Assembly (NCBI GenBank): GCA_004022145.1
Contig: RCNU01000019.1
Length of the DNA stretch: 37,393 nucleotides
From: Paecilomyces variotii
Lineage: Eukaryota
Strand: one strand, 5' to 3'
Positions within the stretch are counted from its first letter, which is position 1. Each line of letters begins with the position of its first letter. The notes below the pieces were generated by a model. That model saw only the letters and a list, made by a program, of their open reading frames with translations. It did not search any database and was not told the origin of the DNA. Positions 14,284 to 37,393 of this stretch are shown piece by piece. The translations under genes were made by a program, and so were the position numbers.

Positions 14284-14579
14284 ACAATGATGATCCGAGG
14301 GACGAACAAATCGACGTCCGAACGAGGTTCCCACATTGGAACAGCTTCATGTTCACTACAATCGTCAACGCAGCAGTTCTCGAACCCAAGTGGGGGATCG
14401 GCTGCTCGACAGACCACAGCTCTCGTGTGACGAAGAACGACCTTCGAAGCGGTCGAACAGATATCAAAAATTGCGCTTGTTATGCAGGTAAGTAGTGTTT
14501 TACACGGCGATCAATTGAGCCACACCCTCAAGACTCCTGAAGCATGCTGACTTCTACAAAGTAGGTCCTCTCGAGCGAA
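14284..14579 (+). repeat. Diverged direct repeat, copy B (paralogue of 11337-11577)
   Basis: Same shared blocks as copy A; intron GTAAGT...GCTGAC...TAG at about 14488-14564. Confidence 0.8.
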
Positions 14580-14746
14580 GGATACAGATCCTAGCAAGGT
14601 TGAACTAGCAACTTAACGAGATCAAAAATGCATGCATGGTCGGCCATCAGCCAGGGACCTGCCCTGAGGATTCTGCAACCACATGTTGCGTACCGGCGTA
14701 ATAGAATGAGCTACGGAATATGCGTTCATCGCAAATTCATGGATTA

Positions 14747-14910
14747 CCACGACTTCAACCTCGAGCGCCTGGATCCCGAGGTGCGAAATAACCTCAAAAC
14801 TAATAAATCACTTCGAAAGGGCTTTGTGAATATTATAAAAATCGCTGTGGAGTGTTTTGAGGCGAAAAGAGTTCCCACCGCGGAAAATTTGGCGTGGTTC
14901 TGTATTGAAG
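14747..14910 (+). pseudogene. Fragment resembling the C-terminal region of a fungal protein family often annotated as ankyrin-repeat containing
   Basis: HDFNLERLDPEVRNNLKTNKSLRKGFVNIIKIAVECFEAKRVPTAENL; the LKTNKSxRxGF motif is recognised from memory. Confidence 0.45.
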
Positions 14911-15870
14911 CGCGCTGCACTGAGAGCAAGATGCGTTTGAGATTCAAGGCATCAAATTTACCCTGCCGGTTCCATTCTACTTCTCGACAACATCATCATC
15001 GGGAGATACTCCACTGATTCTGCAGACAAGCAACCCACATAATTGGGTACAAGAAAAAACAAAAGATTGCAGCTTTTGATTTATAGCGACGGCCTTGGGA
15101 AACAGATTTGCTCGCGATGCCAAGGATTGGAAGTGCTGGCATCCGGTTCCCACTCTGAACGGTTCCAAATCGCCGTTGTCTCCAACCAGAAGAAAATCAG
15201 TCTCCAGAGGGAGATTGAAGGTGGTTATAGCAAATTGAAGAGTCTCACAACATTCAGATTATACTTTTTTTCCCTTCCTTGTCGGAGATGCAACTTGACG
15301 GCCGGGAAACCACTCATATTCTGACCGGGACTTTGCTGCAAACATCGAGATAATATTCAAAACACCGCAAAAGTTCTTCCTTGGGAAACCGCCCAAGCCC
15401 GTTTCGCAAGTATTTGACCCTGGTATATATATCAAGGAAGAAAAGAAAGTGGTCCTAAACCAGTGACCTTCAAAAAATACAGCCCCCTCGACTTAGTTAT
15501 CTTTTGCAATAATCCCAGCGCAGGCAAATCAATATTTTATTAGAAGTATTTACAGCCTCTTAATTACTAGCGTATAAACCAGGATACTTCAAAGACTCAC
15601 CAGAAATACATCAAAATTGCCAACAAGTACGTTATCTAGAAACAAAAGCATGCTGGATAGAGATAGTGTGGGAAGATAATATCCTATACCTCACCTTAAG
15701 TTATATCAGCACAACAACGCTATGTGCGCAGCAAATCGCAATCTAAACCATACAATTCTACCTGTTGCTTTCGGCCTCCAGAACTCTCAGAAGGGTTCCA
15801 AGATGACCAAAAGTGGTAGTTCACCTTATATTTTGGTGTCCGGAAACCGCATCGCGCGAAAACAGAAGCC

Positions 15871-16080
15871 ATGGGTGCTTCTGCTTATATGGGCGTGGCT
15901 CGGTATATTCATCAAGAGTGCATGCGCTCTGAATTCTGGGAAAAGATAGAAGAGCCTAGCCAGGACATGTATAATGTGGCCTTCCATGTCTTTGATCGAT
16001 ACGGAACACTCAAAACCAAAAGAGGAACTGGTGTGTGGGGAGACGAGCTCGATTATGGCCCTCTTTTCCTGATTGAGTGT
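15871..16080 (+). pseudogene. Fragment resembling the N-terminal region of the same fungal family
   Basis: RSEFWEKIEEPSQDMYNVAFHVFDRYGTLKTKRGTGVWGDELDYGPLFLIE; the FDRYG and GxGVWGxELD motifs are recognised from memory. Confidence 0.5.
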
Positions 16081-16333
16081 CATGGTTCTATTCCCTCCCT
16101 CAATATCAGAGCATTGTCAACTGCTGATGGAGCGATATCGTCGCCAACAATCAGGATCCCAAATTGTTTTACAATGCTGGGTTACTGTAATAATAGTCAA
16201 ACAAATAGTCAAGCCTTTTCAACCAGAGGACAATATTCATACTTTGAGAGTGTTCGGCACGCATCCGCGTGAGAGATATTTTTCGGGGGCCAGGGATGGC
16301 CGTGTTTCGCCATATCAGGTGCTCCCTCACGTC

Positions 16334-17374
16334 CTTCTATATATTTAGCTAGCAGCCTTAGTAGCAATGAGAACTCAGACTCTTCGACAACACCTTTTCT
16401 CTTTGCTCCTAGCACTGTTATCCCCGAGATAACAGATACAAGTTTGTATCTGCTTATACTTCTCGAGGGCCAGCGTTCGGCACGGAAGTAACGGTATGAA
16501 TTGGACTTCCTACTTATCATCACATCTGGGATAGCGTTTGTAAGAAGCTGGGATTCTAGCACATATTAGAAGAGTACCTAACATATATGCATGCAGTCAT
16601 TTATTGAAGCAAGACCTTCCCGCATTGTTATATCATTCGACAAAGTTGACTACGAATATAGAGCTGCTGGCTCCGCTACACGCGGTATAGTGGAGTTTAT
16701 ATATGACTTGGAGCCCATATAATGCCGTAAGGAAGACACTGAAGTCAAGAGGGACGATGCTACGATCAAACTAAGGCGTATGAGATAGAGAATAGCGAAG
16801 TGTAATAACTAGCAACTGATAAGCAATCGGTAACCGTGTAGTAATGCTATACTATAATAAGGAAAGAACTGTCCTATCCCGAAAGAATCGTTCGTGCTGG
16901 CAAGCAAGGCAGTTTGGGATCACAAAAAGGCATAGATATTATGATGTTCCGCGATCTCCGTGTAGCCATCGCATTCTGAGGCAAGCATAGCGTGCTGGCG
17001 AGGATACAGCCGTACAACGCCGGGGTTCGTACCTTGCGGCCATACAGCGAACGGATTGGCCAGATTTGCTTGCAATAGGTTCCATTCCCATGCTTGCTGC
17101 GCAGGAATCCAGGCTGAAGGGACGCTTTGAAAAAGCTCGAACTTGGTGGTATTGGGGGCAAAGAACTGGACGAAGCCAAGAAAAAGTTCGGTGGGGGATT
17201 CGTTGGGGGTCAGCTTGGCTCAAGAGCAATTGGACCTGGCAGCTTCTAGCGTGGAACTAAACAACAAAGTGGATCATAATAGCAAAGAGGAATGCTAGGA
17301 GCAATGGGGGAAAAGTGGTATTAAGGAGTCTGGGTTCTCATTGCTACTAAGGCTGCTAGCTAAATATATAGAAG
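16334..17374. repeat. Inverted repeat pair: arms 16334-16414 and 17293-17374, spacer about 880 bp
   Basis: The outer 41 bp are identical in reverse complement (CTTCTATATATTTAGCTAGCAGCCTTAGTAGCAATGAGAAC); the rest is diverged but ends in a shared TTGCTCCTAGCA. Confidence 0.9.
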
Positions 17375-17949
17375 CATATGAGGAATCGCCTAATATATCG
17401 AAATAGGGTCTGCCTCCCCTAAAGACCAGTCCCGGATATACCAGTTTAAAACATCCCCAGAGTTGTCATCACTCCTTGGCAAGTGCTTCTTTAATCTCCT
17501 CCGAAATTTGCGCGATCCTATTATCCAACGCTGTATTAGTCGCTTGCGTGGAATCGAGTGTCTCAAGGAAAAACCATATCGGTTTCCCGTATCGTATCGA
17601 ACATAGGAAAAGTATCCTTATCTGCCTTCATGGTCTGGTTCAGCGACACAAAATATAATTGGACGCGACTATTATTCTTTATCTTCTCTATATAATCTTA
17701 CCCCGAGCTCCCATACTCAATATACTTTGTTTTGTTCCTGTGCCCACCGTTCCTGCGCTTAATATGGGCTGTTCTATTGCTGCGTTCGACATGGGCTGCC
17801 TTGTTGCAGCGTCCAATGGCGGTGGTCGTGTATTACTCGTAATGTCCACACCTTAGCCCGACCGCGCATCTTAAGATCCTGGTTTTGATCATCGTATTCT
17901 TTCTGATACCAGCGTGGTTCCCCAGGTTTAGGAACATAATGTTCCCCCG

Positions 17950-19508
17950 AGCGCAATGGCGTGCGTATCGGTGAAGGTTAGCCCCGCTTCTAATTGCTGC
18001 AACGTTGTAGGGAACGCTATCTGGCGAACAGCTCATACATTTTCTTCCTGGGTAGTCACACCGAGACGAGACATGTGGTGTCCCAGCATCGATATGGAAG
18101 GGTATGTATTGAAGATAACGAAATGCCCGATCCATCTAGTGTGGTAAGCACTTTGTTAAGATACTGTAGGTGCTATTCCTTTGACTGAAATATCATCAAT
18201 ATATACTAGGAACAAAATACCTGGGCAGTGAGGATGAAACTTCAGATAGCGACGACAATGAACTGGATACCGATGATGATGATCTCTTCATCATTCCTCA
18301 TGGACCCAAGAACAAACCCAGTATACCCAAAAACAATCCAGCGCACCCAAGAAGGAATCCAGTATACTTCGCGATACTTGTAAGGAATAGAATAAGGTAG
18401 CGTGATAAGTAGCAATATTTGCGTAATCGCTGAAGATCTGAAGGCGCACCGTGAGGTGCGCTGCTGAAGGAGCAGTCTTATGGGTCATGTGACCCCCGGT
18501 CACGTACATCTCGTGGTGTGCGCAGTGAGGATATGGCAACGGGATATATTCAATCGGTCTTTAGTTGGACTTCAAGCGACCAGCGAACCAAGACCTATAA
18601 GCCTCTTCCCTCTAATGAGAAACCATTTGTCAATGAGCCGTCCATCATCCGTTGTGCCTCGTCCAATATCATCGATGAGGGTAAGACCAGTAATCGGGAC
18701 CACACACCGAAGACGCCAAACCATCTACAGCAGAGCAGAGACTTACATGAGACTCCGTACTCCGTCCGCTCTTCTGCTTGGAATAGCTAGCCTCCACGGT
18801 GAGTCTCTATTACAATCGCCTAAGATCCCTTATCCTTTAGGCCAAAACCTTCACGTGCTGATTTCTTGGTTCTCATAGGTGCCTCTCGGATCTTCAACTG
18901 TCTGCCTTCTCTCAAATATCGAATACGCTCGTTATTAGTCGCTCTGATAGCTTTGCAGGCCTTGGATTTACAACAGATAACAATCGTTGTAATATTGCAA
19001 TAACCCGTGCAAAGCAATGTTTCATCCTTATTAGGAAAGGTAGCGACACGGCCTCCACGCAGCAATAGAGGAAGAGGGAGACAGACGACAACTGTCTGTG
19101 TGAGCAAAACGTCCGATAGGGGAGGTTGCAGAAATTTTCTCTTCATTGAGTCTAAGCGTTTCCCGCGCAGTTCGTGAGACCGCGGTGATAGGAAACTCTC
19201 GTGGTACATCATCGACACTTTCATTCCACTTCTATTGCTCTTGAGGTCATTTAAACTGATTGTTGACCCTTCACTATTAGTATTATGCCCGTCTCATCTT
19301 CAAGGGTCTCCTCCAGGAGGATCCAGGTACCGAGGAACTGCCTAACACTTATTCTGCCCATGGTTTCCCATTTGAATCCCCCTACGGTCACCTCTGGCTC
19401 GAGTTGAAGAAGGATATTGTTAAGCGCAAGTTATGGGAAGATGCCGTTCAGCACAAGATAAACATCCTGACCAACCTAATCATAAATAGTTGGGCCAAGC
19501 CCGAGTAA
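17950..19508 (+). pseudogene. Decayed spliced gene(s), including a Upf1/Dna2-like SF1 helicase motif VI fragment at 18928-19041
   Basis: Intron-like GTAAGC...TAG (~18144-18209) and GTGAGT...TAG (~18799-18878); acidic tract SEDETSDSDDNELDTDDDD; LVISRSDSFAGLGFTTDNNRCNIAITRAKQCFILI; scattered in-frame stops. Confidence 0.5.
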
Positions 19509-21239
19509 GGGTTTAGGCTTCCACTCCTAACTCTCTACCTGGACCTCGTGCAGGTTCGAACAACGGCCGCGCTTCCGCCGATGGACCAGGATCAATCATA
19601 GTTAACGGTCAGCCGATTACGGTCTCCAACCTCAGCAGCAGCGGAAGCTCCGTTCGCCGCCCCAGCAACGTCCTAAACCAGTGCCATGGGTATCTAGCTT
19701 CTACTCCTGACTCTTCGCTTAAACTTTATACCATCGATCTTACGGCGGCGCGGCTAGTGAGTCCCTATCCGTCCGTCCATAATAGGTGATTCTGAAACAT
19801 ACCGACCGGTACCGGACTACAGTAGCTAACTTAAAATCCTGCAATGGTTTGACCTGGATAGCATATTTAATTATTGACATTCTTTGGTTTCTACGTAATC
19901 AACTGTCTAGCATTTCCGACCATATACCGTTTTCTGTTAGCAATGTCGACGAATTAAATCGATTTTTTTTCTCAACAGTCAGCAAAATCAACGTTAAAAC
20001 TGCAAAACGTTTCTAACAGTTTCTTAACCTTCTAAACACCTTTCCAATCATTTTGCGGTAGTAATGTTTAGAGATCAAACCATTAAGATAACAGATTAAA
20101 CGTTCGGACACTAGTCCGAACATTGTAGAAGAGAAACATTGAAGGTTCCAACCATTAAAAATCTTTTGGGAACGTTACATTAACCTTTCGCATTCCATAC
20201 CTTTTAACTCTACGATAATTCATATACCTTTTAAATCTACAAACCTTTTACATATATAACGTTAGAAAAATATAATGTTAAAAAATTATTTTAATGTTCT
20301 TTTGATACTTCTGTTAAACATGTCGACTTTGCATAAGTTACCGATCTTTAACCGAGTTCTTACCATTTAAAGTCCCCATCAAGGACCGGTATGGTACGCA
20401 GGCCCCACCAACACTTTATCCAGCATCACCTCTTCTGCCTTCCTCCATGTCATGCCACACGCTCGCAGCTAGGAATCACTCTATTATGAACGGCAGATAT
20501 TTGGTAAGTCTCTGTTCCCATTGTGTACAACGAGATTTTGACATGTTATTTCAGCCAAGGAACAGAGACCTCCTGAAACCCCGCTTTTGCCACTGCTGGG
20601 TTAGCGATAAGTAAGCAGGATCGTGGATCAGCATGAAGCTTGGGAGGGAGGTGTAGTATCGGGCGGGAGGAGGAGCAGGCCGAGCTGGCCGGATGCTGTG
20701 TGTACGGACGATGTTCTCACCGTGGTGAGATCCGGCCCGTGTTCCCCATCGATCCCCAGAATTGTGCCATGGGGGTGCGATCCTAACGGCATCCCGACAG
20801 GGAGTGGAATCACATGATGATGTTGTCGCGATAAGCTTTGCTGTTGACAGGGCTGCATCTAGTGGGTCTAATCGCCGTTGGCGGATGGGCCCCCCTGACT
20901 ATATGATTGCTATGATCAATATCAACTGGGCGGAGCCCCAGGGCCTAAATACAATCAATCTCTGGTGAAAAAAACGCCTGCGTTGCCCCGCGCGTTATTG
21001 TCCTTTGGCCGCGTTGGTCAGGCTTATTTCTCTTCTCCTCTTTCTCCTCTCCTCCTCATCTTTTCCTCCTTCTCGTCTCCCATCCCTCCTCCTTTCTTTC
21101 TCCTTCTTATTCCTCTCTCCCTTGTTCCTCTCTCCCCTTGTCTGTTGTGCTGTACCCTTCTTGGGTTATATTTTTTAGTGCCCTGGTTAGATTCTTAGAT
21201 TCCCCTATCTTTGCTTAATCTGCATTATCCAAAATAGCC

Positions 21240-24219
21240 AATATAACAGATGATCCTATTACGGGATTGTAATGGCTCAACCCTAATATAATAATGAATT
21301 CCAACCCCTCCTGCAAGAAGAAGTATTAAAAGTCTAAATTTAAGATCCAACAGTTTAGCAACATGATTGAGGCTGATACGCGGAAAATGTTTTGGTTTAT
21401 TGTGTTGGTCGACATTGCCCCTTTAGACCCTTTCTGGGGATACGGCCTGGCCGCCAATTATGCTCTTTTGGATTCCTATATGGCCAGTATAATCGATATA
21501 TTAACACAAAGAGGCATCCGGCGCTTTGATGCTGAAACGCATCTTTAGGTTGCTATACTTAGTTATCTGGTGAATGCAATCTGTCATAATATGGATAAGC
21601 AGACCCGAGCCTTGGCTAACAACTTCGCCGCTATTACTATCCAGGACTACCCTGTTGTCAATCTTAAACAATACCTGAACTTAAGAGATTAGATACGCCT
21701 TAAGGCTGGTCAATATTGGCGGGCTGCTATTATAAGGATGAATGGCCTGTCTAATATAGCCCGCGAAGGCATCTTTATATAGGAACTGGATGCTATTTGC
21801 GAACAGGTGAGTTATAGGGCCCTATATATTTCCCTCTGGGATAGATTGACTAATGTCCCCGGAGCTGATTATGCCGTCTCCTCAGGATAGTTATGTTGTG
21901 CCGTGCTTCTTCTTCTTCTTCTTCTTTTTGCTCACCATAGTAAGATTTATGCTGACCGGTGTGGCGGGTTAGTCAACCATATGGGCCATTGAGGTGTACG
22001 AGCTTAAGTCCCTTGATAGGTTGCCGATCGTTCGGAACTGGATTATTAGAAATAAAATTAATATTACCTGCCCTGCTAGTAGAGGAGATCTCTTCAGCTG
22101 GTTCTATTAGGCGTAGAGCGGTTTAACACCCGAGCAACGGCAAGAAGTCAAGTCCTCTTATCTGAACTTTGATAAGTTTCTTATAGTGATTTTCGGCCCA
22201 GATCCCAGTTATTACTATAAGATCTATCCAATCATCAAACATGGCCTGTAAAATAACTGCTGCGTCCGCCTGTGCTCCATTCTGTAGACGCGCGAATATA
22301 TAGTGCTTGGGAACCTGTCCAGTGCCGTCAGCGCACATATCCCTCGCGTATATAATTTTTAGTCTCCCCCCCCCCCCCCCCCTTTCTTTTTTCTGACTAT
22401 AATGAGATCAATACTAACTGGCACTGCGGGCGCGCCAGTACTTCCTGGGGTTTATTAATAAGATCCTAAAATAGTTCAAAACTGTTATTAGTTTAGCGGC
22501 CGAGCAAATTAGTCCCTTAGATATAGATCTACTAATACATAAATCTAGCTATTTTACAGGAGTTAAGCTAAGACTACTATTCTTCCCTATTCTGTCCGAT
22601 TTTAGAGTTAATTAAGCCAAGCAGATGATTACCGGGAATACCGCCCGCCTAAATAAAGCATAGATGCTTAAGCACCCTAATACTAAGCCCAACTGGCCCC
22701 GCCTAGCGACGCCATTCCGCAATATAGATAGTAAAGCATACCCGTTCTAGCGCCTAAAGTTCCTGGCCAACTTGAATAATACTATATATATAGATCTCTA
22801 CCACCATCTCCTTAGCAATAATATAGTTAACGCCCCCTTTCTGAAATAGGATATAGTTATAGTGCATAATGCCCGGAAGGCGGGCTTGCTTACTAATCGC
22901 ATCCTAGGATATATAATCTAGTGGTTCAATCCCAATGCAAAGACCCCCGGCACTAAGAATAAGAATGCGCTCTTATGGTTCTGGGACAAGATTATAAAGA
23001 AATATATTATCAATCGCCGCAATAATATATTTATCCTCCCGCTCTGTAATGGCCCGCATGACTCTACAGCTAGTGCCCAGGCTCTAATTAATGCAGTCTT
23101 CCAGATCTGCAAGATTTACTATCAGGAGCTAGACACGGGCAAATACAAGCTGAAGGTACTATCCTCCCCTCCCCTCCCCTGCCCTTAAGCCCCCTGCTGA
23201 CCGATCTGTCTCTAGCTTAAGGATCTCCCCGCCGGCCCCAACAACTATAAGCAGACCATTATATATAACGCCTGTTTTGCCCAGCATCAGTAGAATAGTC
23301 TTTTGCTCCTGGCGTGGGATTTTACCGGCGGCGCGTTCCTAACTCCCGGCGGGCTTAAAGGATATTGGGACTGCACGCAGATCGTAAGTACCCCCCTCCG
23401 GCGGCCTAGTGCCCTTAACTAACCCCGCGGCCGGCAGGTCAATTGCAGTCTGCCCTGGACCATCTAGGGAGACGTCATAGTCCGCCATATGGCCACTGCC
23501 AATCCCGAGTTGCGCAGGATTATACCTATCCTTGGGTTAACCGCCCGGACCGACCTCTGCCATAAGGGCAATATATTTGGGGCGCATTTTATATACTGGC
23601 AGCTCAAGCAGATCTAGACTGAGAATCGCAGCCGGGCTCAGACGGCAACTGTTGGGCTATCTAACTAGCTAGGCATCCTGACCTAGATAAGTCTTTGCCC
23701 TATTCTTACTATGGTGAGAACTACCCTGCGCTGACCGATCCCCAATAGCACTAGCGCATTATTATTAAGGAGGCCTTACACTGGTATACTAAGCTGCTGA
23801 ACTTATTGTCGCCTAACCATATAGACCCCCTTAACCCGAACGAGCCCTTTCATACAATCCGCTTCTCCCACAATTTCTTCCCGAGTATATCTGCTACTAA
23901 TCATGCCCCTCTAGATACTATATAAATCAATTCAGCCCCCCAGGCAACTATAGTAATTAACTCAGTGCTCCTAACAGCCCCCATGCTTACTTCTATTATC
24001 TTACACATCCTATCCTGCATAATAGCACTAATTATCGTCGTGGACCCTTTTATAGAGATAGGTCCGCCGCAGACCCCCAGCATAAACTGCTTTATTCTTA
24101 ATAAACTCAAGCGCAGCGGGGCAGGCTATAGTTATTATTGCCGTGCCAGCAGCGGTGTTAGTAACTTAGGTAGTCCTAGCTCTAATCACAGTAGTCGCAA
24201 GAGGCTGAGGGGCCAGTGA
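21240..24219 (+). pseudogene. RIP-inactivated multi-exon gene of unknown function
   Basis: Long coding-like frames broken mainly by TAG/TAA at CAG/CAA-compatible positions. Clear introns at 23156-23215, 23384-23437 and 23687-23748 (donor mutated to ATAAGT); others at about 21808-21864, 21890-21972 and 22360-22438. TpA excess. Confidence 0.7.
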
Positions 24220-25386
24220 GCCTCCCCAGCAATCCCATAATAGGGAGTAAGATAGATGGGTTAGTGATTTAGGATGGTGGCGCGGTTTTTTTTCTTTTAG
24301 TTTTCTAAAAGTTCGGTAGTGGTTTAATTCTGTGCTTCAATCCGCCTCTTCCATGTATGAATAGTATTTTTCCCGATGTTTGTTAATACTTGAATACAAT
24401 CTCCGACTGCCGTACTGTGTCTTGTCTCCCCGTGTGGTCCGGGTGGCGCGCCAGATCGATGATGCCTTGGGGTGACCCCAGAATAGAGTACCTAGTGGGT
24501 CCGAGCCGCGCCGTTGGGGTGGATCCCCACGCTTCGGCCAACCTCCCGCGCTTGATAGGAAATGCCGATTCAGATCCTCACGCCGTCCCTTCGCCCACAA
24601 TCAGACGAGACCTTTTTCTCCATGGTGAGCAAAAGAACAGTTCTCGCGCTTCCGGTGCTCGTCCATCTTTGCCCCCCCTGGTCGGGGTTCGACATCGGTG
24701 ACGCCCCGCTGGCCACCCGCGTGGTTGCGTTGCCCTCCCCCTGTCTCTCAGCCAGCTTCCCCGCCGCGGCCATCGGGCCATCCGGTTTAGCGGTGAGAGA
24801 CGCAGCGCACTGTCTGTGGAATGTCGGTGCAGATGTGGCAGCAGCTGCTAGAAAGAGATCCTGTAGCCAGTTCTAGTATCAACTACCTTATTCTATTCGT
24901 CCTGACCTGATTTCCGAGTCCACACCTTGACACTCTTGTTCAATCCAGGAAATTTACATAACAATATCTATTGCATACTATCGAAACATATTGTACATAT
25001 GACTATGCATATAGAGGTATTTCGATTATATCATCCGGATAGACCGTCCTGCACAGTCGTAACTTCGTAATTTGTCACTTAAAACTCGATATTGCTTGTC
25101 GGCGAGGGCGGGGGGTAAGATATCTGTCATTCGGAAATGCAGAGCTGATCTGCTGCGATAAGTGCTATTGCTGTAGGATCGCACAATGTGAGGTATACAG
25201 GCCACGTATAAAATATGAAAGTATTCGATCATCGCTAGATGACACCAATATGGCGGAGGCGGGTTGGCTGGAGGTTCCGTTCTGCCACAAGATCAACAAG
25301 AGACCAGAAAAAGCCCCAAACTGATCTCTGGCGCAGTGATAAACGGGGAAGGAGAAGCGTCTCTGTATACCCCTTGATATTAGCTT

Positions 25387-28035
25387 TTAGCCAGAAGACG
25401 GGGTTGTCATGCTTTCATCGGATTCTGGTGGAGACAGTTTTCTCTTAGGCTGCTTACGCGGAACGTATTCGGCGACTTTATCCGCGTTGAAGCCATGGTA
25501 CAATCGTAGATGCTCTTTGAGGGCATCCGCTGAATTGAAAACCTTTGATATACAACCTGCAACTTTGCATTTTGAAGGCACCCAGCTGGGATCGTGACAT
25601 CTCATTTTGTGCCTTATATAGGCACCGTAATTGGCATACGGTTTTCCTCCGTTGCAGCCGTATTCACACGCTTGTGTGCTCTTCGTGTGACTCGTTATAT
25701 GCGTTGCCAGGCTGCTATACTTGGAGTATGCCTTTCCACAGCCATGGGGACAGACAAGTGCGGGTGGCGGCAATTTTGCGGGCGGCTTCGTAGGATCACA
25801 TCGAGACACGTGGGAATCAATGCGTCTTCGTGTCGGATGCTTGTAATCACACACGGAGCCGTCGACGAACTTGGTTTTGCAACGAAATTCATAGAGTGTC
25901 GGCGGGTCTCGGCTATTGCCGGTGGCGACAGAGTTATATAGACGCTGTGGTTCATTGAACATCTCCAGAGCCACTCTTTGACACAAGACAATGTTGATTC
26001 TGGCAAAGAAGCGGATGAATTCTTCTCCGGACATCTGCGTCCAGAACTGTTGCGACTCAGGTTCCATATACATGATATCTGCTGTAGCTAGTTTTTCCGC
26101 GTCGGTAAGGTGCAACGGTTCAGAAAAAGCATTATCCTTGCCGGGGGTTGGACTGGAGGAAGTCCCCGCTAGAAATTGCATTTCCTGGTCATCTTTTGGG
26201 ACATAATGAGAGCTGCCTGTTCCGCAGCCAATCAAGTCTTCAAATTGACTCATCATTGTCATTTGCAAGTCGACGTTGTCGTTGCCTGCTTCTACCGAGT
26301 CTCCATCTTCATCGTCACTAACCATGATTTGATCATAGCCAGAAATCTTTCCAGTTTGAGCCTCTGTGGTCATCAACAGGGCTGGATCTATATTGGACGG
26401 TGTTGTTTCCTTGCGCTCGACATTTGGGACCTTAATGTTATCACCAGATGCCTCGGCTTCAGTTGGGGTTATACCAGACGTAGTCCCAAGTGTGTCTTGA
26501 CCAGTCCTGTTTGAAGTAGATTTATGTATGGGGCCCTTCACCGCTTCCTCTTTCCATGCGTCGAACTCGGATCGGAACAGGGCCCTCGCTGCCTTACGAC
26601 GGTTGCTCTGCGATGAAGGATCAAGACCGCGTTCTTGACACCAGCTAGTGAGCTCTGGGGAATTCTTGCGTCTTCTTTTTTTCTTCATGGACTCGTCGGC
26701 AACAGGTGGGGCGAAGGGATCCTGGAAGGGATGGGAAGCTCTGGCTGTAGTGGTGTCGACGCCGAGTCCCCCCATATACATCTCCGTTACACCGGCGTGC
26801 AATGCTTTACGACTATGTCCCAAAGCCCTTGCGACATGTTCAGCACTTGTAAGAGGAAAAGCTTCTGCTGGCACGTGGGCGAGATCTCGGGCAGAACCGT
26901 ATCGGACAGCATGAGATGAGAGCTTTTGGCAAACACCAGCTTTAAGTCCCATATCCTGGATAGTAGCGCGTAATTGCTGGGTACGTGCTGGAATGTCGGC
27001 AGAGAGAAATCCATGCTGCTCGATGCCACATATGACAGGACGCTGGGGGATCTGCCAAACAACTTTGTGGTCACGTCGTGAAAAGGCTTGCTGCAGAACC
27101 TCATCTAGTGTAGTGAGCGGAGAATTGGGATCCTTCTGGGAAGCACATGCTCCTTGACGAAGAGCATGAATCAATAATAGCTTGACAGCGTCGATCGCGA
27201 ATAGCTCTGGAGCTTCATATTGTCTAACAATATGCGTACGAGCCTCGTGAGGACGGTCTTTTTCTCCCTTAGCGTAATGAAGGGAGACTCTCATGATGAC
27301 GTTCTCGAGGCATGGCTGTTTCTCCACTATCACTTCGATATGCTCGTATAGTAAGCATGCCTTCCCTTCATAATGCTGACTCAGTGCAATATCGCCAGCA
27401 CGAGAGCAACATGCGTGCATCAGTACAATGCTTAAGAGACGAGAGATGTGTATGTCCCACGACCGGCAGCCGTTTTCGAGCCCGTCTTCAATCCACGCTC
27501 TTGCCATATTTCGAAGGAGGATAAGACCCACAAAGCAGCCTTGCTTCCTGGCCCCTTTTATGAGCTTACCCTCCTGTCTGAGGCGAGCAATGCACGAATC
27601 AAGTCTTTTGGCTTCGCCATTCGTCATCCGATAGTCCGGATATCGGAAAGACAAACCATCTACAAGTAAGGAAATCGAGCCGCGAATAGTGTATTCTGAT
27701 ATGGCATGGCCCTCACCATAACGGGATTTCATGTTGCGTACCACCGTTTCGACAAACCGGATTAGCTCGTCACCAGTAGGAGGGCCGTCTGGGGGGTTTC
27801 TGGAAGTCGCCCTGAATGCGTCGAATCGATTCATGGTCATTTGGCGCATTTGCTGGGTGGATGGAGCGCCTCGCTGATCAGTAAGGGTCTTGAGTCGTTT
27901 CTTGGAGTGGGCTCGGTCTTCAAATTGGTTCTCTTGCATTTTCTGAATACTGGCAAAACCTGCTCGTGCAAATTTATTCACCGGCGGCTCGTCAATTTCA
28001 ATATCTGATGAATTGAAATCTTGCGTAGCTGCCAT
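25387..28035 (-). CDS. Tyrosine recombinase (phage-integrase fold) with a basic NLS and C-terminal C2H2/C2HC zinc fingers, 882 aa, intronless
   Basis: Catalytic set in the correct order: R212 (CCSRAGD), K256 (HYAKGEKD), H375-x-x-R378 (SSHAVRYGSA), H407 (RALGHS), Y420 (VTEMY). NLS MKKKRRRK; acidic linker; fingers CPHGC...HITSH, CEYGC...HKMRCH, CKVAGC...HLRLYH plus an upstream C-x9-C-x12-H-x3-C. Confidence 0.9.
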   Translation of the reverse strand: MAATQDFNSSDIEIDEPPVNKFARAGFASIQKMQENQFEDRAHSKKRLKTLTDQRGAPSTQQMRQMTMNRFDAFRATSRNPPDGPPTGDELIRFVETVVRNMKSRYGEGHAISEYTIRGSISLLVDGLSFRYPDYRMTNGEAKRLDSCIARLRQEGKLIKGARKQGCFVGLILLRNMARAWIEDGLENGCRSWDIHISRLLSIVLMHACCSRAGDIALSQHYEGKACLLYEHIEVIVEKQPCLENVIMRVSLHYAKGEKDRPHEARTHIVRQYEAPELFAIDAVKLLLIHALRQGACASQKDPNSPLTTLDEVLQQAFSRRDHKVVWQIPQRPVICGIEQHGFLSADIPARTQQLRATIQDMGLKAGVCQKLSSHAVRYGSARDLAHVPAEAFPLTSAEHVARALGHSRKALHAGVTEMYMGGLGVDTTTARASHPFQDPFAPPVADESMKKKRRRKNSPELTSWCQERGLDPSSQSNRRKAARALFRSEFDAWKEEAVKGPIHKSTSNRTGQDTLGTTSGITPTEAEASGDNIKVPNVERKETTPSNIDPALLMTTEAQTGKISGYDQIMVSDDEDGDSVEAGNDNVDLQMTMMSQFEDLIGCGTGSSHYVPKDDQEMQFLAGTSSSPTPGKDNAFSEPLHLTDAEKLATADIMYMEPESQQFWTQMSGEEFIRFFARINIVLCQRVALEMFNEPQRLYNSVATGNSRDPPTLYEFRCKTKFVDGSVCDYKHPTRRRIDSHVSRCDPTKPPAKLPPPALVCPHGCGKAYSKYSSLATHITSHTKSTQACEYGCNGGKPYANYGAYIRHKMRCHDPSWVPSKCKVAGCISKVFNSADALKEHLRLYHGFNADKVAEYVPRKQPKRKLSPPESDESMTTPSSG

Positions 28036-30399
28036 GGCTGTTGTAGATTGTGATGAAGCGAGCGTGTAAGCTGTTTGGATCGACCAGGTGAAACTAGAGG
28101 TCTGTCAAATCTCACGACGAAGCGGGTGGTACGGCGGTACAGAAACTAAGGATACATTTCATATTAGTATTTTGAAGTAACAAACAAGACAAGAGACTTA
28201 CAACGAAGTGCGTGACTTAGAAGTGCCACAACAACAGCAGAGCAAGTTAAGGGTAGCTGCTGAGAAGGTGAACATAGGATCTCACAAGATTACCGACTGT
28301 TCATATTAGACTATTTGATACAACTAGGCGAGCAAGAAGCTTACTATAAGATATGCAGCTCAGCTGCATCACAGAAGAAGTAATAGAATAAATAGGAGAA
28401 TGGGGATCGAGAATGAATGTAGAAGGATATGAAAGAAGAATTTGAAATTGTCAGAGAAAGCTTTGGCACGGCAATATCTGTCTGGGGATAAAACCCAGAC
28501 TGAAAATTTTGCTCGATAGCACGCTGAATGTGGGAACGAACGGTACTCGGCTGGACCACGATGGAAGATGAGCGAGAGACGATGAAAGATGAGGGAGAGA
28601 GGAAGACGAGAGAAATCCAGACCGAGGGGCAGGCCGGGTACTTGTTAGATCGTGGCCTCTTTATCTTCGCTCCTGCCTTTAGCAGAACAATGACGCAAGA
28701 GACAGCCGTCAGAACACTTACCGGAGCCTCACTGTCTGCACATTTCTCTAGGCATAGTCTCTTCTCCTCGAGTGAGATAACCTTTTGACCCGCATTACAC
28801 AGAAGGAAAGGGTCTGTATGCACTGGTGCCCTTGTTTCTGTTGCTTCCATTATGGAGCAGACGGACGATGTCTATATCTACACCTCCTTCCCAACCCCTC
28901 AAACTGCCTGGTATGCCAATTGCCGCGATACTGCTTACATCTACACGGTGGTCTCCCATTTGACGTTTCGGAAGTTGATATTAGAACTATCTTCTCGCAG
29001 TATTTTAACAGTAACCGTACATGTAAGTCTAATGTCTTTTAGATCTTCTTGACCGGGAGACGAATCTCGTATGCTGGAGCCGAGATCCCACAGGAGAGTC
29101 CGTGGGGGATTCCCATTGTGAATCAAATGCACCACCGATGTTCCGCAATGGCTCGATCTGGTTTCTCACCATGGTGAGATTGAAGCCATTATGAGTCCGT
29201 GTCTCACTGCCAGCGGTCGAACCCAAATCTCACCAGGTGAGATCAAGTAGCCTGACTTCTAAAACTCCCTCTCTCTGCCTTCTCACCTGGGCTCGCCGGG
29301 ACCCCGCACAACCCACCCAGAAGAGAAAGAGCGTGCAAAACCCCGAGCAGACCACCGTACCAAAATTCTTTTCTTCTCTTTCTTCCTCATCTTCTCTCTG
29401 TCGGTTCTGTCGATTATCCATGGACAGCTCAGTTCTATATCTCCTCTACCTCTCCTCCGCCATCCTCCTTGCTCCTTCCCTCGAAACCCAGCCTGCACAC
29501 CAGATTCTTTATCAGACTTCAACATCCCCGGGGCCCTTGCGAGTACGGTAGGCTATTGGTTGAGGGTATTAGGGGTTAGATATAGCCCAGGGACAAACAG
29601 CTTCAACTTCAAAGACCTGTCCGTGAAAAGAGGTCACGGTGATTACTTCAACATAAAGCCAGTCCGTGGATCTTCTCCACCAGCCAGTCTTGCCATATTG
29701 ATCAGAGGTTGGATCTCCATAAAGCTGGAATCCAGGGCATATACGGGTCTGCCGACAACCGCGCAGACGGCGGCAATAACGAATGGATTGGAAAAGCAGA
29801 CGCAGGCGGAGTTAGATGCAGAGAATTAGGGAGCCGGAGGACCTGCAGGAGAGAGATGGGGAATCCCGATATAGTCTTTCTTGCTGGTTACTAGCCCTTT
29901 CAAGTCAAATCTCACCATGGTGAGATTGGTGGCCCCTGGGTTGCGATTGGCCTAGCGCCCAGCCTTAACATTTCCACAGAGAACCTTTTCAACCTGTTGC
30001 CGTTCCTCCTTATCTTCCTACTGACCGTTCCACCCCCTGCTCTCTTATCATCGCTATCCCCTACACTAGGTTCCTTGATGTCGCACAAGATAGCCAACTC
30101 TACACCCTCATGGCGTTCCTGAGAACCCTCGCGGATATCCTGAGGTGATCGGCCACCTTCTAGAGCTCTTAGAGAAAATGTGCGCAATAATGTGCAGTTT
30201 CTGGGCCTTTCTCTGGCCAACCTGGTGGATTTAATAGATACAGACTTCTTTAGCCGGTCGGCCTCTTTTTGGCGCGGATTTAGATTCTGTATAGAAAGTA
30301 GGTTGCTAGCGGCATATATATATAACTTTGATAGAGCAATTCGCGGCGGAGAGCTGAGGGAATTTTTTAACATCTGTATATCTTACTTCTGTAGCTAGA

Positions 30400-31640
30400 G
30401 ATAGCAAGCTATTATTATATATAAGAACCTTACTATAAGAGACTTTATAAATTAGCAATTAGCAAACTATCTAGAAATCTTACTATAGTGAAATTAGTTT
30501 CAATTTAAGTTTAAATAATATTAGCTCTTATAAGACTATAGATTAATCTAGGTAATTTAAATTTATTCTCTATTCTTTTTAACTAGTTATAAGCTTAAGT
30601 AATACAGATAACGATAAAATAATGGTTTTTGTAGCTTAAATACCAGAACTTTAAATAAATTTAGAGGATAAAGCTTATCTTCTCCTACCTAGTAGGAGAA
30701 GGAGACTATATCTAGCTAATACTTATATAACAGGATGCTTATACCTTTATACCCTTCTCTAGTCGCTCTATTAGTAGATCTATATTAGAATCCCCCCTTT
30801 TTATTAAATTAATATCCTTATTATAACTCTCTTATATTTCTTATTTAACTTCTATAGCTAAAAATAATTATTCTATTCTTTATTTATAAAAGTATTAAAA
30901 TATTTAATAGTTATAATTAATTCTATAGTTATACCTATTAGCTAAATAATATTTAGCCTATTTATAAATAGTGTTTATTTTTAATTCTAGTAGGCTTTTT
31001 TTTAATTATTATATTTATTCTTAAACTATAATATTATAATCTATAAGTATATATAATATATTATAATAATTATAGTTATTAAATCTATTTATACTTTTTT
31101 AATAGTTATTTTAAATATAAGTAATATATATTTTGCGGAAATAATAATATTATTTTTATTTACCTATAAGTATCTAAATAATATATTAGTTTCTTTCTTA
31201 AGAGTAGGCTAAATATAAAGTATTTATCCTTTATTTTTAGAAGAATTTATAAGTAAACTAATTAATATAAAAAAGAGATATTATAAATTAACTAATATAG
31301 GTTACTTAAATAGAGTAATATTATAATAAATAACTAATATAAGGAAGAATTATAAATTAAAATATAAGAAAAGAAAATATTTTCTAATAAATAAAAGTAA
31401 TTCTATATTATCTTATATTATAAGGGTAATATTATTATTATTATAAAGAGAATCTATAATTATAAGATTAGTATAAATAGGTAATTAAATTAGCTCTTCT
31501 ATTTATATATTAATAAATTATATTTATAATAATAATATCTTTAATAATATTAATACTAGTATAAATATAAATTATAAGAATTAAGGAATAGATTTAATTA
31601 TTTATATAATTATTTCTATTATAGTAAAGTATTCTAATAA
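30400..31640. other. Heavily RIP-mutated AT-rich DNA of unresolved origin between the recombinase region and the retrotransposon
   Basis: Abrupt drop in GC near 30400, near absence of CpA/TpG, and a RIP-mutated copy of the palindrome at 30476-30495. Confidence 0.6.
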
Positions 31641-31643
31641 TAC

Positions 31644-34600
31644 TGTAGTAGGGAGAATTAGTGTAAAGAATGTAATTAGTTAAGAGGTTATATGCTTTTG
31701 CTTAAAGCCTTTAAAAAGTCTATAAGTAAAGCAGAAGAGGAGGAAGAATAAGAGAGAGATAATATCTTTCAGTTATTTAAAATAAAATAATTAGTTTTTC
31801 CTTTCTATTATTGTTTAATATTAGTTTAATATTAGACTATTATTAGTTTATTATATTAGTTTATAGCTAAAGCTTCTTCTCTAACTCTACTTTAAGCTCT
31901 AAAACTAAATACTCTTCTCTTCTTTCTTAATATCTACTTACTTAAAGACTCTATACTAAGTCTTAATATATCTTCTTATAATAAATTAAAGCTAAATATA
32001 AGGGGCATTAAAATATTAAATAAAAATAAGGGAGAAAAGAGAATTAGAAACTAAGATTAAGGCTAAAACTAAAAAAAGGGATAAAAAATAGTAAAAAAAT
32101 AAATAAAATAGCTAAAGAAGATTACTATTATAAATAAAAAGAGATAAATATATTTCTTAAATTAATAAAGATAGTAAATATAATATAAGGCAAAAATATA
32201 TATTAATAATAAGAGAAAAGAAAAATTATTAAATATAAAGAAGAGCTCAGCAAATATAAAAGAGAAATAAAAATTTAAAAAAAATAAGAAATTATTAAAT
32301 AAGAATTATTTATTAAAAAATAGAAGAATTTCTTATTATTATTTTTATTACTATTTTTTTAAAAAAATATAGAAAAAAATACTAATCTTTTTAATATTAG
32401 TTAAGATAGAAAAACTCTTAGCTTTTTAATATTACTAGGTTTAAAGATATAAATAACTCAGGTATTTAAAAATATAGGACTACTAATAATATAGCTAATC
32501 TAGATTATATTAGCTCTATAAATACTAATATCTAAAAATTCTAAAATACTATATTTTAAAAAAAATAATATTACTTATTATCTAAGGCTTTTTAAAAGGC
32601 TATATAAGGTAAATTAACTTTTAAAAAAGGAAAAAACTAAATAATTTATAAACTATTATAGCCTATCGGTATTATTTTAAATAAATACTTAATCTAAATA
32701 TAAAGAGAAGAATTATTTAAAATTAGTAAAAATAATTAAATAAAAATATATTTATTATAATAAATACTAAAAGAAATATAATATCTAATAGCTAAAAAGG
32801 TTTAAAAATATAAAATATAATAGCTCTAAGGATCTAAAAGAATATAATTAAGAATATTAAGCTATATTAAAAGCGCTAGTAACTTTAAATAAGTTAAGCT
32901 AATACTTATAAAAAGTTTAATATCTTTAAGAACTTCTAAAAAAGTTTAAATAATAAATAGTTTAAAAATTAAATATAGACTATTATACTCTATCTATTAT
33001 TAAATATACTAATTTTTATAAAAAAATAGTAAATAAGATAAGAATAATTAAAACTTTTTATTATCTTAATAATAACAAACTAGAGAAAGATTAAGATATA
33101 ATAGCTTTAATAAAGATAAAGATAATTAAAGAAAATAATATATAATTTTTTATTAAATTTAATAGAACCTATCTAGATAAGAATAAGAGTAAGATTAAAT
33201 AATAAAATATTAAAGTAAAGTTAATAAAATAGTTATAAATTAATTAATTAATAAAAGAGTTTAAGAAGTTAAAACTATATAATATATAATATATAAAAAG
33301 GCCCAATAATAATATACTTAATACTAATATAAATATATAAGCTAGGGCGCCTTTAGGATTTAACCTAACTAAAGGATTTAAAATACCTCTAAATTTATAT
33401 AACTTTTATTAAGCTCTTAATTATATTTAATCCTACTGCTTAGATTTAAAAAGCCTTTTAAATTAAAAGCTTATTTATTAAAAAGAAGACTATAAATTTT
33501 ATTTTAGACTAAAAAGATAAAATAGAGAAGTTATTTATCTTATATAGGGGAATATATTATAAAAGAAGATTATTAAATAAAGATTAAAAAAAGAATAAAA
33601 GAATATTAGCTTAATTAGATATAATATCTAATTAATTATACTAGGATAGCCTAAGAATAATTTAAGCTCTAAGAAAAAAGCTAGGAATATTATAAAAAAT
33701 TACTACTCTATTAATATAATAAGATTAGATAAGTCTTAAAAAATAAAAAAAAGATAAAGTAAGACTAAATAATTATATAAAAAAAAGCTATAAAAAATAA
33801 TTAAATAAAAACAAAGATTTTCTTTAGTTAAGATAAACTAATTTAGCAATTATTAGCCTCTAAATATAATTAAAAAAGTAAAAATAATTAAAAAAAAAAT
33901 AAAAAATATGCTTAAATAAAATAAAGATAAAAAGATTATTAAGATAAAGGAGAAGCAAAAATTAAAAAGGTTTAAAATTATAAATAAGCTAAAAGGAACT
34001 ACTAATATAATAGGGATTATAAACTAAATATTAAATATTAGAGTTTAAATATTAATTTAAGATCTTATTAGTCTATCTCCTAATTTATATAAGGCCTTAT
34101 TTACCTTATAACTATAATAGGTAATAATAAAGATAATATTCTATAATACTAAAGGAATATAGTTTAATGCCTTTATATTAAATATAAAGTATATAATAAA
34201 TAATATAGATTAGTATACTTGCGCATTCTTATAATTTAAGCCTCTTAATAAAGATAAAGTACTATATATAGCTATAACTCTAAAATTACTAATTAAAATT
34301 AATAGTTATAAAGAGATATAAAATATTATAATAAATAATAGAGCCAAAATTAATATAATATATAAAAATATAATAAATTACTATAAACTTATTATAAACT
34401 AAAAATTTAAAGATAATATAATATCAGCAGATAATAGGCAGACCTCTTTTATAGGTCTTTATAAAAAAGTGCCTATATAGGTAAAATCTTTTTATTATAA
34501 GGTCTCTTTTTTTATAATAAATAATAAGATTAACTATAATTATATTCTGGGACGGCCTTTTAAATATTAAGTATATTTATAATATATTACTCTATTAAAT

Positions 34601-37393
34601 AAGATAGTAAAGAGTATAATTTATTTTATAGACTAAAAAAATTAAGCTATTATTTAAATATTTTTAATAGATAACCTAAAAAATAAATTAAAAGAAGAGA
34701 TATTGCGCGATTTATTATCCTAAATATAAGAATTATTAAATTAAAGCTAAAAAAGAATAATAGATATTAGATTAAGAATAAAGAAGGCTTATAGGAGCTA
34801 TATTTAATAAACAATATTAGCTTTAAAATAAGCGAAGAAATTAAAAGTAAAAGAGTAGAGATATTTAAACCTACTAAATTAAATAAAGGAGTTAAAAAAT
34901 TATAGGAGTATAGACTATTTAAAAGATATAACTTTTTTATTATAAAAATAAAATATTCTATTAATATATAGTATAAAAAGAAATATAAAAAGGTTTATTT
35001 AATAAATATATTAAACAGACCTATAATAGCTCTAGAGAGATTATTAAGATAAAAAAAATTATTAAGAAGCGCTATTATAAAAACCCTTAAAAAAGTATAA
35101 AAAAAATATACAGAGGATTTACTAAATATATCTAGCTAAAAATATTAGATATTAAAAGAAGAATAAGATTAATACTAGATTATCTAAAAAATCTTATTAT
35201 AAATAATAATTTATAGCTAAGAGAGAAAAAACTATTAATAAAGGTACTTTTTACCTAAAAAATAGTCTTTATCTAAACCTTTAAAAAGATTAAATAAATA
35301 TACCTAGAAGTTATACCTCTAATTATTATTTAGACTATAGATTATAAACTATAATAGGCAAAGAGCTTCCTAATATTAAAAGCATTCTATAATATAATAT
35401 AAAAAATAATAAAAAAAAGGATAAATATAAGGATCTTTAAATATAATTAAGGACTCTACTAAAATCTATAGTTCTTAATAAAAAAGAAAAATAATAAATA
35501 TTAGCTAATTAATATAGTTATAAAAGTTAATTAAGTAATAATATAAAATATTAATCTACCCCCTTTAATTAATAAATTCTTAAAAGAGTTTAATAAAATA
35601 CTAATATTAATACTTATAGACTTATTCTCTAGATATAATTAGTTAGAATTAGCTAAAAAATTATAGGACTTAACAGCTTTCTATATATTAGAAATTAGTT
35701 TAGTTTATTAAGCCAGATTATTCTAAGGATAAATAAATATAATACAAGAGTTTATATAAAGAATTATATAAGTATTAGCAGATAATATTCTTAATATCTA
35801 TAATATATTTCTAGATAATATACTAATATAAGAACTTAAGACTAATTATAGGAGGGAAGAAACACTGCCAAAAATTAAAAGGTTTATATTTAAATATATT
35901 CAGAATATTAATAAAGTACTATATAATCTTAAACTTATAGGTTTAATAATTATTAGGAAGAAATTATAATTTATAGTATTAGAAATTAAAATAATAGGCT
36001 ATATATATAATACTAAGGGGAAATATCCTAAGTTAGTTAAAATAATTAAAATCTTAAAATAATTATTTTATTAGAACTTATAGAAAATAAGAGAATTTCT
36101 AAGGATTATAGTCTATTATTAGATATAAATTAAAAAATATATTATTAAAGCTAAGCTAATATACTTAATATTAAGAAAAAAATAAGACTTCTTTTAAGAG
36201 CTAAAATAATAAAAAATAATAAATACTTTAAAAATAGCCCTAATAATAACATTAATATTTAAGCTAATTAACTATAAAAAGAAAGGTATAATTATTATTA
36301 ATATTAATACCAGTAATAATAAATAGAAGATATAATTTACTTAAAAAAAGAAAAAGTTTAATAAGAGACACCTAGCCAGATATAAAAGTAGAATATAGAT
36401 ATAGATAGAGAGATAATATAATAAAAAAAAACTAGAGTATAGGGCAGTACTAAAGACACTTCAGAAATTCTAAGTATACCTATATAATATATATTTTTAA
36501 CTAGAGATAGATATAAAAACTCTAATTATATAATTAAATAAAATAGCTATAAACTTCTTTAAGTTAATAATTATTTAGTAGATTATTTAGATTTAGCTAT
36601 TTAACTTTAATATTATCTATATATTAGGGAAAAAGAACTTAATTATAGATAGATTATCTTAGAAGCTAATAATAAAGTAAGACTTAAAAGAGGTAAAAAA
36701 TAATAATATAGAGAAGTTCCTAGACCTATAATTTTATATAGTCTATTATACTAATATATAAGAAGTAAAATTAAATAGTATCTCTTAATTAACGCCTATA
36801 TTATATTAATTAGAAAAGTCTTTACTAATTATAAAATAGTTATAAATTATAATAAAACTAGATAATATAAATTAAGAATAATATGCTAAGTTTAAAAAGA
36901 AGGCTATAAAGTATATAATATAAGATAGTATCCTTTTCTGGAGAGTATAATAAAATTAGCCTTATTAAATAATTATTAATAATAAAAGAAAGTAAAAAGA
37001 GATCCTTATTGCCTTTTATAAAGAATATAGATATTAGAAATATAAAGCAATATATAAGAAAATAGCTGATTAATATTAGTAAAAAGGCTTATATAAGTAT
37101 ATTATTAAATAGGTAAAGATATATAATAAATATTAGAAGGCTAATAAAAAATATATAAAAGAAGCTTTATAGTTAATATTTATTCTACTAAAGAGATTAA
37201 AGCTATATTTAAATATCTATAAGATTATACTGTCTAATAAGAGAAAGATTTATATTATTATATTTTAAGATAACTTTAGCTAAATTAAATATAGAGCATT
37301 TAATAGCCTTACTTTAAAAGCTATTACTAAGTTTTTATAAAAAGACTAGATTTATTATTAAAAAATAATAGAGATTTTTATTAATAATAAAGA
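31644..37393 (+). mobile_element. RIP-inactivated Ty3/Gypsy LTR retrotransposon (putative 5' LTR ~31650-31820, then gag, protease, RT, RNase H, integrase; continues beyond the window)
   Basis: Allowing for C>T/G>A changes: zinc-knuckle-like YC...H...C (~33435-33495); protease INNRAKINII (D-x-G-A-E-I-N, ~34330-34360); RT NLPPL...IDLFSRYN, DLTAF, FLDN = FLDD (35808-35819), GEETLP; RNase H NTS = DAS (36306-36314), KRHLARY, KKLEYRAVLKTLQKF, IDRLS = ADGLS; integrase zinc-binding region from ~37000. The order RT-RH-IN indicates Gypsy. LTR limits are approximate. Confidence 0.9.

Follow-up and report, generated by a model that had tools for sequence, protein, structure and literature searches.

A zinc-finger tyrosine recombinase of Paecilomyces variotii that probably belongs to a divergent branch of the Starship-captain radiation

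Introduction

What kind of mobile element, if any, does an intact tyrosine recombinase gene with a zinc-finger tail serve? We address this question for a 37,393-nt stretch of Paecilomyces variotii DNA (contig RCNU01000019.1, assembly GCA_004022145.1; hereafter "the window"), which carries on its minus strand (25387..28035) an uninterrupted ATG-to-stop open reading frame (ORF) of 882 codons plus stop, here called P0001. To our knowledge, tyrosine-recombinase transposons are the least understood of the eukaryotic DNA transposons. Recent work has shown that Starships carry large gene blocks from one fungus to another. An initial annotation of the window, made from its letters alone, proposed that the gene may define an uncharacterized class of fungal element.

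We find that P0001 is probably the captain-like transposase of a tyrosine-recombinase DNA element, from a family that would form a divergent branch of the DUF3435/Starship-captain radiation. Most likely, it acts, or acted until recently, as transposase for a Starship- or Crypton-like element, although its mobility is something that we infer. The family is large, unnamed, and fast-evolving, and it lies at the margin of the Starship-captain radiation. No separate class is demonstrated, and P0001 is no ordinary, well-classified captain either; the claim of an uncharacterized class is only partly supported.

A Cre-like recombinase module

The two-domain fold predicted for the N-terminal half, together with R, K, HxxR, H/W, and Y residues in canonical order, marks P0001 as a genuine tyrosine recombinase as far as modeling can tell. 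A model of amino acids (aa) 1–480 built with 73 relatives as input reaches a mean predicted local distance difference test (pLDDT) value of 90.7 and a predicted template modeling (pTM) score of 0.84, and the best 25 rows of a Foldseek search with this model are all Cre-type chains (top E 8.5e-6), a comparison with Cre having been suggested by the initial annotation. The top matches across both domains are Cre, XerH, and integron integrase, which share the order of catalytic residues with P0001. Unlike them, P0001 is eukaryotic, has no detectable sequence similarity to these enzymes, and carries ∼440 residues beyond the recombinase module, fingers included.

In the model, the stretches that align with Cre, IntI, and XerH start at aa 46–51, and matches restricted to the core-binding (CB) helical domain span aa 51–165. 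On these fold matches, the CB domain is placed at about aa 51–165 (27541..27885, minus strand; pLDDT >90), while fold and residue conservation place the catalytic (CAT) domain at about aa 166–441 (26713..27540, minus strand). All six catalytic residues named in the initial annotation are found at the numbers given there and in columns conserved across the family. Their codons, all on the minus strand, are R212 (27400–27402), K256 (27268–27270), H375 (26911–26913), R378 (26902–26904), H407 (26815–26817), and Y420 (26776–26778). In an alignment of 73 relatives, limited to matches that cover most of the N-terminal half and with short fragments excluded, the corresponding residue is kept in 70/73, 71/73, 60/73, 70/73, 70/73, and 70/73 sequences, respectively. 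This conservation counts for a transposase role, as domesticated recombinase relics (the DUF3504 and Ndc10 cases) usually lose their catalytic residues, according to the available part of a survey of such genes (PMC3212892).

Two short motifs frame the module. DFNSSDIE (aa 6–13; 27997..28020, minus strand) is strongly conserved across the family, where it reads DFNSSD[IV]E, and is invariant in a 9-sequence alignment; in the 73 sequences, S9 is kept in 60/73, S10 in 57/73, and D11 in 53/73. The basic run KKKRRRK (aa 451–457; 26665..26685, minus strand) would correspond to the nuclear localization signal that had been claimed, and looks like one when read by eye.

Sequence alone does not reveal these relationships. 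The family profile has 0 matches at E ≤ 10 to solved recombinases in PDB and none to a phage integrase in PHROGs, and kinship to solved or phage recombinases on that basis was rejected. Word-based protein searches returned only 9 matches with the 73-row alignment and 1 with the C-terminal part, and contributed little.

A conserved four-finger tail

Behind the recombinase module, a long, disordered, and poorly conserved linker leads to a GNSRDxP motif (aa 706–712), followed by one C2HC and three C2H2 fingers (aa 719–847; motif and fingers at 25495..25920, minus strand), recognized from Pfam, PDB, the alignment, and the model. The initial annotation had counted three to four fingers. The zinc-ligand sets are C719/C729/H742/C746, C762/C766/H779/H783, C790/C794/H809/H814, and C823/C828/H842/H847, and each ligand is kept in 34–39 of 40 full-length relatives. 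Because of this conservation, the combination of recombinase and four fingers is considered ancestral to the family and not a local fusion.

The only Pfam match of P0001 is zf-C2H2 (PF00096) at aa 761–783 (25.7 bits; cut-off 25.2), and its sequence matches in PDB are finger proteins only (e.g. GLI, E 1.5e-6, and YY1). A model of aa 620–882, confident over aa ∼660–860, resembles tandem DNA-binding finger arrays such as those of CTCF, TFIIIA, ZFP568, and WT1, and the tail is predicted to be a DNA-binding array of the C2H2 type. In the mechanism we propose, the fingers would select the DNA site and recombinase subunits would synapse two sites; Y420 would then make a 3′-phosphotyrosine link, helped by R212, K256, H375, R378, and H407, and strand exchange would excise or integrate the element, probably via a circle.

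An intact gene that is probably transcribed

P0001 is by far the longest frame of the window (the runner-up has 287 aa), and the identical protein is found on 3 contigs in the public collection. The uninterrupted 882-codon frame is confirmed, and so is the claimed lack of introns as far as RNA contigs reach. Specifically, one public sequencing run (X12) is RNA-like—i.e. its contigs show four GT..AG joints elsewhere in the stretch. These contigs also cover the ORF (24677–26590 listed, with depth in every bin up to 28425), and none has a splice joint within the frame, so that the gene is probably transcribed without being spliced.

Signatures of repeat-induced point mutation (RIP) are absent from the ORF, with TpA/ApT of 0.5–0.8 throughout. 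P0001 had also been described as the only clearly intact gene from ∼11 kb to the window end. No other ORF of ≥190 aa exists in that interval, which agrees with the description, but spliced RNA-like contigs do occur at 18.8–21.0 kb, yet without a convincing frame.

A large family with a patchy distribution

A profile of the N-terminal half, run against 1.84 billion representative proteins clustered at 50% identity, retrieves 1821, 1142, and 348 clusters at E ≤ 1e-3, 1e-10, and 1e-30, respectively. Twenty matches were looked up by name and 15 were named. The named relatives belong to Eurotiomycetes, Dothideomycetes, and Lecanoromycetes, while the first search adds Sordariomycetes (Diaporthe) and the yeast genus Lipomyces. 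As the initial annotation foresaw, pipelines label P0001 and its relatives simply as "C2H2-type domain-containing" or "hypothetical", and this holds for all of the relatives looked up. Full-text literature searches found no published description of this family.

The distribution of the family across fungi is patchy and its sequences diverge rapidly. For example, the nearest relative, from Paecilomyces lecythidis, shares only 62% identity with P0001. Within-genome paralogues, diverged by >50%, occur in Penicillium decumbens (3 copies) and in Elasticomyces, Vermiconidia, and Lipomyces tetrasporus (2 each). In an unrooted, outgroup-free tree of 21 named members, the two Paecilomyces sequences share a long branch of their own, apart from other Eurotiales, and the three P. 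decumbens copies form one clade. The Lipomyces members (P0004–P0006) are nested among Pezizomycotina, beside the lichen fungus Imshaugia (Shimodaira–Hasegawa-like approximate likelihood ratio test, 95), a placement that horizontal transfer could explain, as could an ancient origin with later losses.

Relatives were also located at 15 metagenome loci (L001–L015), of which six distinct ones are long enough to judge. Among these, one is intact (L002, 986 aa) and five are split across frames; the split homologues are more likely broken and less likely intron-bearing. A SNF2-family helicase gene adjoins the homologue in two unrelated metagenome loci, L002 (12448–16385) and L015 (7764–9512), downstream in one and upstream in the other. 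Overall, the pattern of turnover, paralogues, and broken copies fits a selfish family better than a conserved host gene.

Strain variation and the limits of the element

Part of the 24–31 kb region is present in 18 public runs, and the contigs of four were compared with the window over 11.5–31 kb. In run X11, which has the same organism label and comes from another sample, the left flank (11500–17363) is near-identical, with 2 differences. By contrast, a 12,047-nt X11 contig over 17345–29395 carries 680 differences, nearly all of them transitions (G>A 233, T>C 255, A>G 194, C>T 6, transversions 5), and the RIP-like tract, placed at 17688..29395, is a candidate for a once-duplicated unit. Among the 40 of 757 differing X11 places listed, 31 make up an unbroken G>A run (17803–20625).

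The gene itself is affected elsewhere in the species. A 399-aa P. variotii protein (P0010) differs from P0001 by 8 residues, all explained by C>T changes on the coding strand, including H290Y, R293C, and the catalytic H375Y, and its gene model ends just before a CAA codon. Some strains thus carry RIP-type, inactivated alleles, and because they do, the recombinase gene is dispensable. RIP acts on duplicated DNA, which suggests that the ∼12 kb tract was once present twice. The gene lies 1.4 kb from the right end of this tract and reads inward, and we infer that the ∼12 kb tract at 17.7–29.4 kb is the best candidate for the limits of the element.

Two other explanations were weighed. P0001 might be a decaying relic, i.e. 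the last intact-looking copy of an extinct element, open by chance, transcribed by read-through, and inactive. Its degraded surroundings (RIP-like composition at 19.5–20.5 and 22–24.5 kb and a 7 kb AT-rich block alongside), the mutated alleles in other strains, and the absence of identified partner sites would agree with this. We consider it highly improbable, as an 882-codon frame with all catalytic and zinc-ligand residues intact and no RIP signature is unlikely without recent selection or arrival, and as the protein is identical on its 3 contigs.

Rather unlikely, too, is a domesticated protein with a host function at a fixed locus, i.e. a DNA-binding or regulatory factor, or a recombinase for programmed rearrangement, that is no longer part of a mobile element. 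The gene is transcribed, its finger array resembles that of a transcription factor, it is present as a single copy at apparently the same locus in the runs compared, its relatives reside among housekeeping genes, and element ends were not found, all of which a domesticated gene would explain. Yet the six catalytic positions are retained family-wide, whereas the known domesticated examples lost them, and loss-of-function alleles of the RIP type (H375Y and the truncated model) exist within the species. The many broken relatives, the patchy distribution, the >50% divergence of paralogues within genomes, and the congeneric identity of only 62% also speak against a host function.

The limits of the element were sought in several ways. 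In a self-BLAST of the window, no repeat includes the ORF, and no contig among the 4 runs bridges an empty site; the distinct DNA element of the initial annotation could not be delimited, and the empty site that an alignment of strains might reveal was not found in the runs compared. Terminal repeats between the candidate ends amount to two shared 11-mers, which is within chance. A joint from 17999 to 28592 was rejected as an empty site: it is found in one contig in each of 3 runs, with a 22-nt side and flanks that match nothing in the window. Peaks of summed depth in run X7 (bins 20614–21264 and 29077–29727) were likewise rejected as a measure of copy number, since they add up every contig's depth in the presence of low-complexity DNA. 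Contig cover is lacking at 29728–30378 in X11 and at 21916–23217 in X7.

Single X7 contigs at 28118–29395, 29445–30569, and 20146–20859 have 5–12x the depth of neighboring single-copy contigs and are nearly identical to the window, which suggests that un-RIPed repeats flank the gene in that sample. An inverted repeat pair at 16305–16414 and 17293–17403 (82% over 111 nt, enclosing ∼0.9 kb), similar to a miniature inverted-repeat transposable element (MITE), coincides with X11 contig breaks and lies just left of the onset of RIP-type differences.

Relationship to Starship captains, Cryptons, and other carriers

The closest ties of P0001 are to DUF3435 proteins. In a protein atlas, the neighbors of aa 1–480 are DUF3435 clusters (score 0.98; structural TM 0.69), followed by NDC10_II clusters, so that Crypton-type clusters lie farther from P0001 than DUF3435 clusters. 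When Pfam profiles were compared, as the initial annotation had proposed for DUF3435, Phage_integrase, and Crypton, the outcome was divided. P0001 has no match to DUF3435, Phage_integrase, NDC10_II, or GCR1_C even at E ≤ 10. Among 49 relatives, however, 9 pass the DUF3435 (PF11917) gathering cut-off of 25.8 bits (26.0–40.2 bits), 14 have a match below it, and 26 have none at E ≤ 0.01. The DUF3435 matches span only profile positions ∼25–210 of 418, and sub-threshold Phage_integrase matches are found in 6 of the 49.

Two members of the family are already in the published catalogue of Starship recombinases. In their available parts, starfish Tables S3 and S4 list PIA90313.1 of Cercospora beticola and KAG8533760.1 of Bacidia gigantensis as "tyr" and "clade03", without a family (PMC11162782). 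They are not alone in this, as ∼9% of representative recombinases are left unclassified in the portion of that study available (PMC11162782). Taken together, the relatives that pass DUF3435, the DUF3435 neighbors, the two "clade03" entries, and the zinc finger of the captain Kirc speak against the view that P0001 fits none of the known fungal carriers well.

Starship captains (e.g. HhpA of Hephaestus and Kirc of Enterprise) are fungal, as is P0001, and share with it the Cre-like CB and CAT fold and the R-K-H-R-H-Y set. They are also similar in size, with a median of 812 aa predicted in the accessible part of the starfish study, against 882 aa in P0001, and HxxR is common to clade 2 captains and this family (PMC11162782). 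A zinc finger on a captain is known as well, as Kirc, in the available description, is a recombinase that also has a zinc finger and a chromodomain (PMC8092012). P0001 differs from captains in failing the DUF3435 model, with its relatives cataloged without a family assignment, and its family differs in having a conserved tail of C2HC and 3 x C2H2 fingers and the N-terminal DFNSSD motif, and in extending to Lipomyces. In contrast to Starships, the P0001 locus showed no sign of a giant cargo element, of terminal repeats in direct or inverted orientation, or of companion genes. The Tangerine family, which belongs to clade 1 and is without a CB domain in the available part of its description, was set aside as not being this family (bioRxiv 10.1101/2025.11.25.690456).

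Other carriers are more distant. CryptonF proteins use GCR1_C as their DNA-binding domain, according to the part of the Crypton survey available (PMC3212892), whereas P0001 has a C2H2 array and neither a GCR1_C nor an NDC10_II match, in agreement with the claim that it does not have a CryptonF domain make-up. The 6-bp terminal direct repeats of Cryptons, described in the same source (PMC3212892), would be recognizable here only with a second copy. DIRS/Ngaro elements link the recombinase to reverse transcriptase and RNase H; the claimed absence of a linked reverse transcriptase stands, with no RVT or RNase H match in ORFs of ≥60 aa at 11–30.7 kb.

That P0001 mobilizes a separate, undescribed class outside both Starships and Cryptons, as initially suggested, appears quite unlikely. 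Several observations would suit such a class: P0001 matches none of the four Pfam profiles, the DUF3435 matches of its relatives are marginal (≤40 bits) and partial, and DFNSSD[IV]E, HALRxG, and the conserved four-finger tail are not described for captains in the available parts of the literature compared. Members also occur in Lipomyces (Saccharomycotina), where L. starkeyi has 0 Starship recombinases among the matches listed, and Imshaugia CAF9909759 is not among the catalogue matches listed, though its genome was screened (both PMC11162782); the silence of the full-text literature on such a family points the same way. Set against this are the two relatives placed as "clade03" inside the Starship recombinase tree in the available tables, the DUF3435 clusters that are nearest by both features and structure, the precedent of Kirc in its available description, and the fact that no element is delimited at the locus.

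The captain-like transposase that we favor must itself be weighed against a number of observations. Besides the lack of a DUF3435 match in P0001, the family keeps HxxR (60/73), which is the clade 2 form in the available text of the starfish study, where clades 1 and 3 have YxxR (PMC11162782); the "clade03" label of the two relatives may therefore mean only a peripheral placement, judging from these motifs. The three P. variotii genomes of that study have at least 5 recombinase calls, four of them classified (families 2, 5, 7, and 7), with none of these four listed as "clade03" and P0001 not found among the P. variotii catalogue matches listed (PMC11162782). At the locus, neither the window nor the 4 runs compared yielded a second copy, terminal repeats, a target-site duplication, or an empty site, and all DNA-like runs of the species that hold the stretch seem to hold it at the same place. 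ORFs of ≥60 aa at 11–30.7 kb include no cargo genes and none of the Starship companions DUF3723, FRE, PLP, and NLR. The neighbors of relatives are ordinary genes (ESF1, RPA34, XPG, and SNF2 helicases), and no DNA similarity extends beyond the ORF among relatives' loci. Finally, RIP can leak from neighboring repeats into single-copy DNA, and RIP-type alleles are therefore no proof that the gene itself was duplicated.

A palindrome cluster around the gene

A 16-nt palindrome, TCTCACCATGGTGAGA, is confined to the 20.7–29.9 kb interval of the window, where it has six matches at ≤3 mismatches. Shuffling yields 0.10 matches on average, and 0 of 100 shuffles reached 6. The copies at 20715, 29164, and 29910 are perfect or have one mismatch: TCTCACCGTGGTGAGA lies at 20715..20730, and perfect palindromes lie at 29164..29179, with a shorter-spacer variant at 29228–29242, and at 29910..29925. 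The left half and flank of the latter (GTCAAATCTCAC) recur as a half-site at 28104–28115, i.e. 70–81 nt upstream of the P0001 ATG. The remaining copies (21930–21945, 23704–23719, and 24615–24630) are degenerate and differ mostly by transition-type changes.

Outside the palindrome itself, the six sites have no alignable flanks, and near the homologues in L001–L015 no recurrent palindrome was found, save one unrelated pair in L014. The palindrome could serve as a site of the recombinase or the fingers (candidate AATCTCACCATGGTGAGATT) or have a regulatory role, or it could belong to some unrelated small repeat. A GGGRAWTSCCGAT-like box ∼50 nt upstream is common to the sites at 24615, 29164, and 29910.

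A bolder version of events would make the family its own lineage, on a level with Starships and Cryptons, of small (∼10–13 kb) elements whose four-finger array reads a lox-like palindrome, AATCTCAC-CATG-GTGAGATT, clustered around the gene; the lineage would reach Lipomyces beyond Pezizomycotina, and its member in P. variotii would have remained active. We regard this combination as unlikely.

Surroundings of the locus

Left of 11 kb, the window contains ordinary genes, i.e. a GH11 xylanase, a PALP enzyme, a fungal transcription factor, and a sugar transporter. Apart from P0001, the ORFs of ≥60 aa at 11–30.7 kb gave no Pfam match, except for one sub-threshold AAA_12 helicase fragment. This fragment (18862–19065, plus strand) lies in a region (18300–21000) with spliced (GT..AG) RNA-like contigs and no long frame, which probably corresponds to a pseudogene that is transcribed or to a non-coding RNA.

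On the other side, the locus is bordered by an AT-rich block (30500..37393; 15–18% GC over most of it, composite RIP index >1), ∼7 kb long with an extreme RIP signature, and no ORF of ≥90 aa is present at 30.7–37.4 kb. Pieces at 29366–29489 and 29602–29693 are found in many contigs and, since some Starships have 5S rRNA or tRNA targets, were considered as such; neither Rfam nor ARAGORN returned anything in the window, and the piece at 29366–29489 is CT-rich low-complexity DNA.

Smaller repeats were also seen. A 57-nt piece (12678–12734) is 91% identical to part of the GH11 xylanase (1388–1439), 11 kb away, and contigs of two runs end exactly there. Downstream of the sugar-transporter gene, short direct repeats (82–87%) lie ∼3 kb apart, at 14496–14580 vs 11490–11577 and at 14278–14329 vs 11331–11381.

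Significance

At this locus, a large recombinase family that is missed or left unclassified in current catalogues is represented by an intact and probably expressed gene, and the choice of sites by these enzymes could be explained by the built-in, conserved finger array. In P. variotii, an assay for the excision of a Starship is already in use, according to the available part of its description (PMC10104507), and mobility and site choice are therefore directly testable in this species. Should the fingers determine which sites are targeted, this family would represent a zinc-finger-guided recombinase that occurs in nature.

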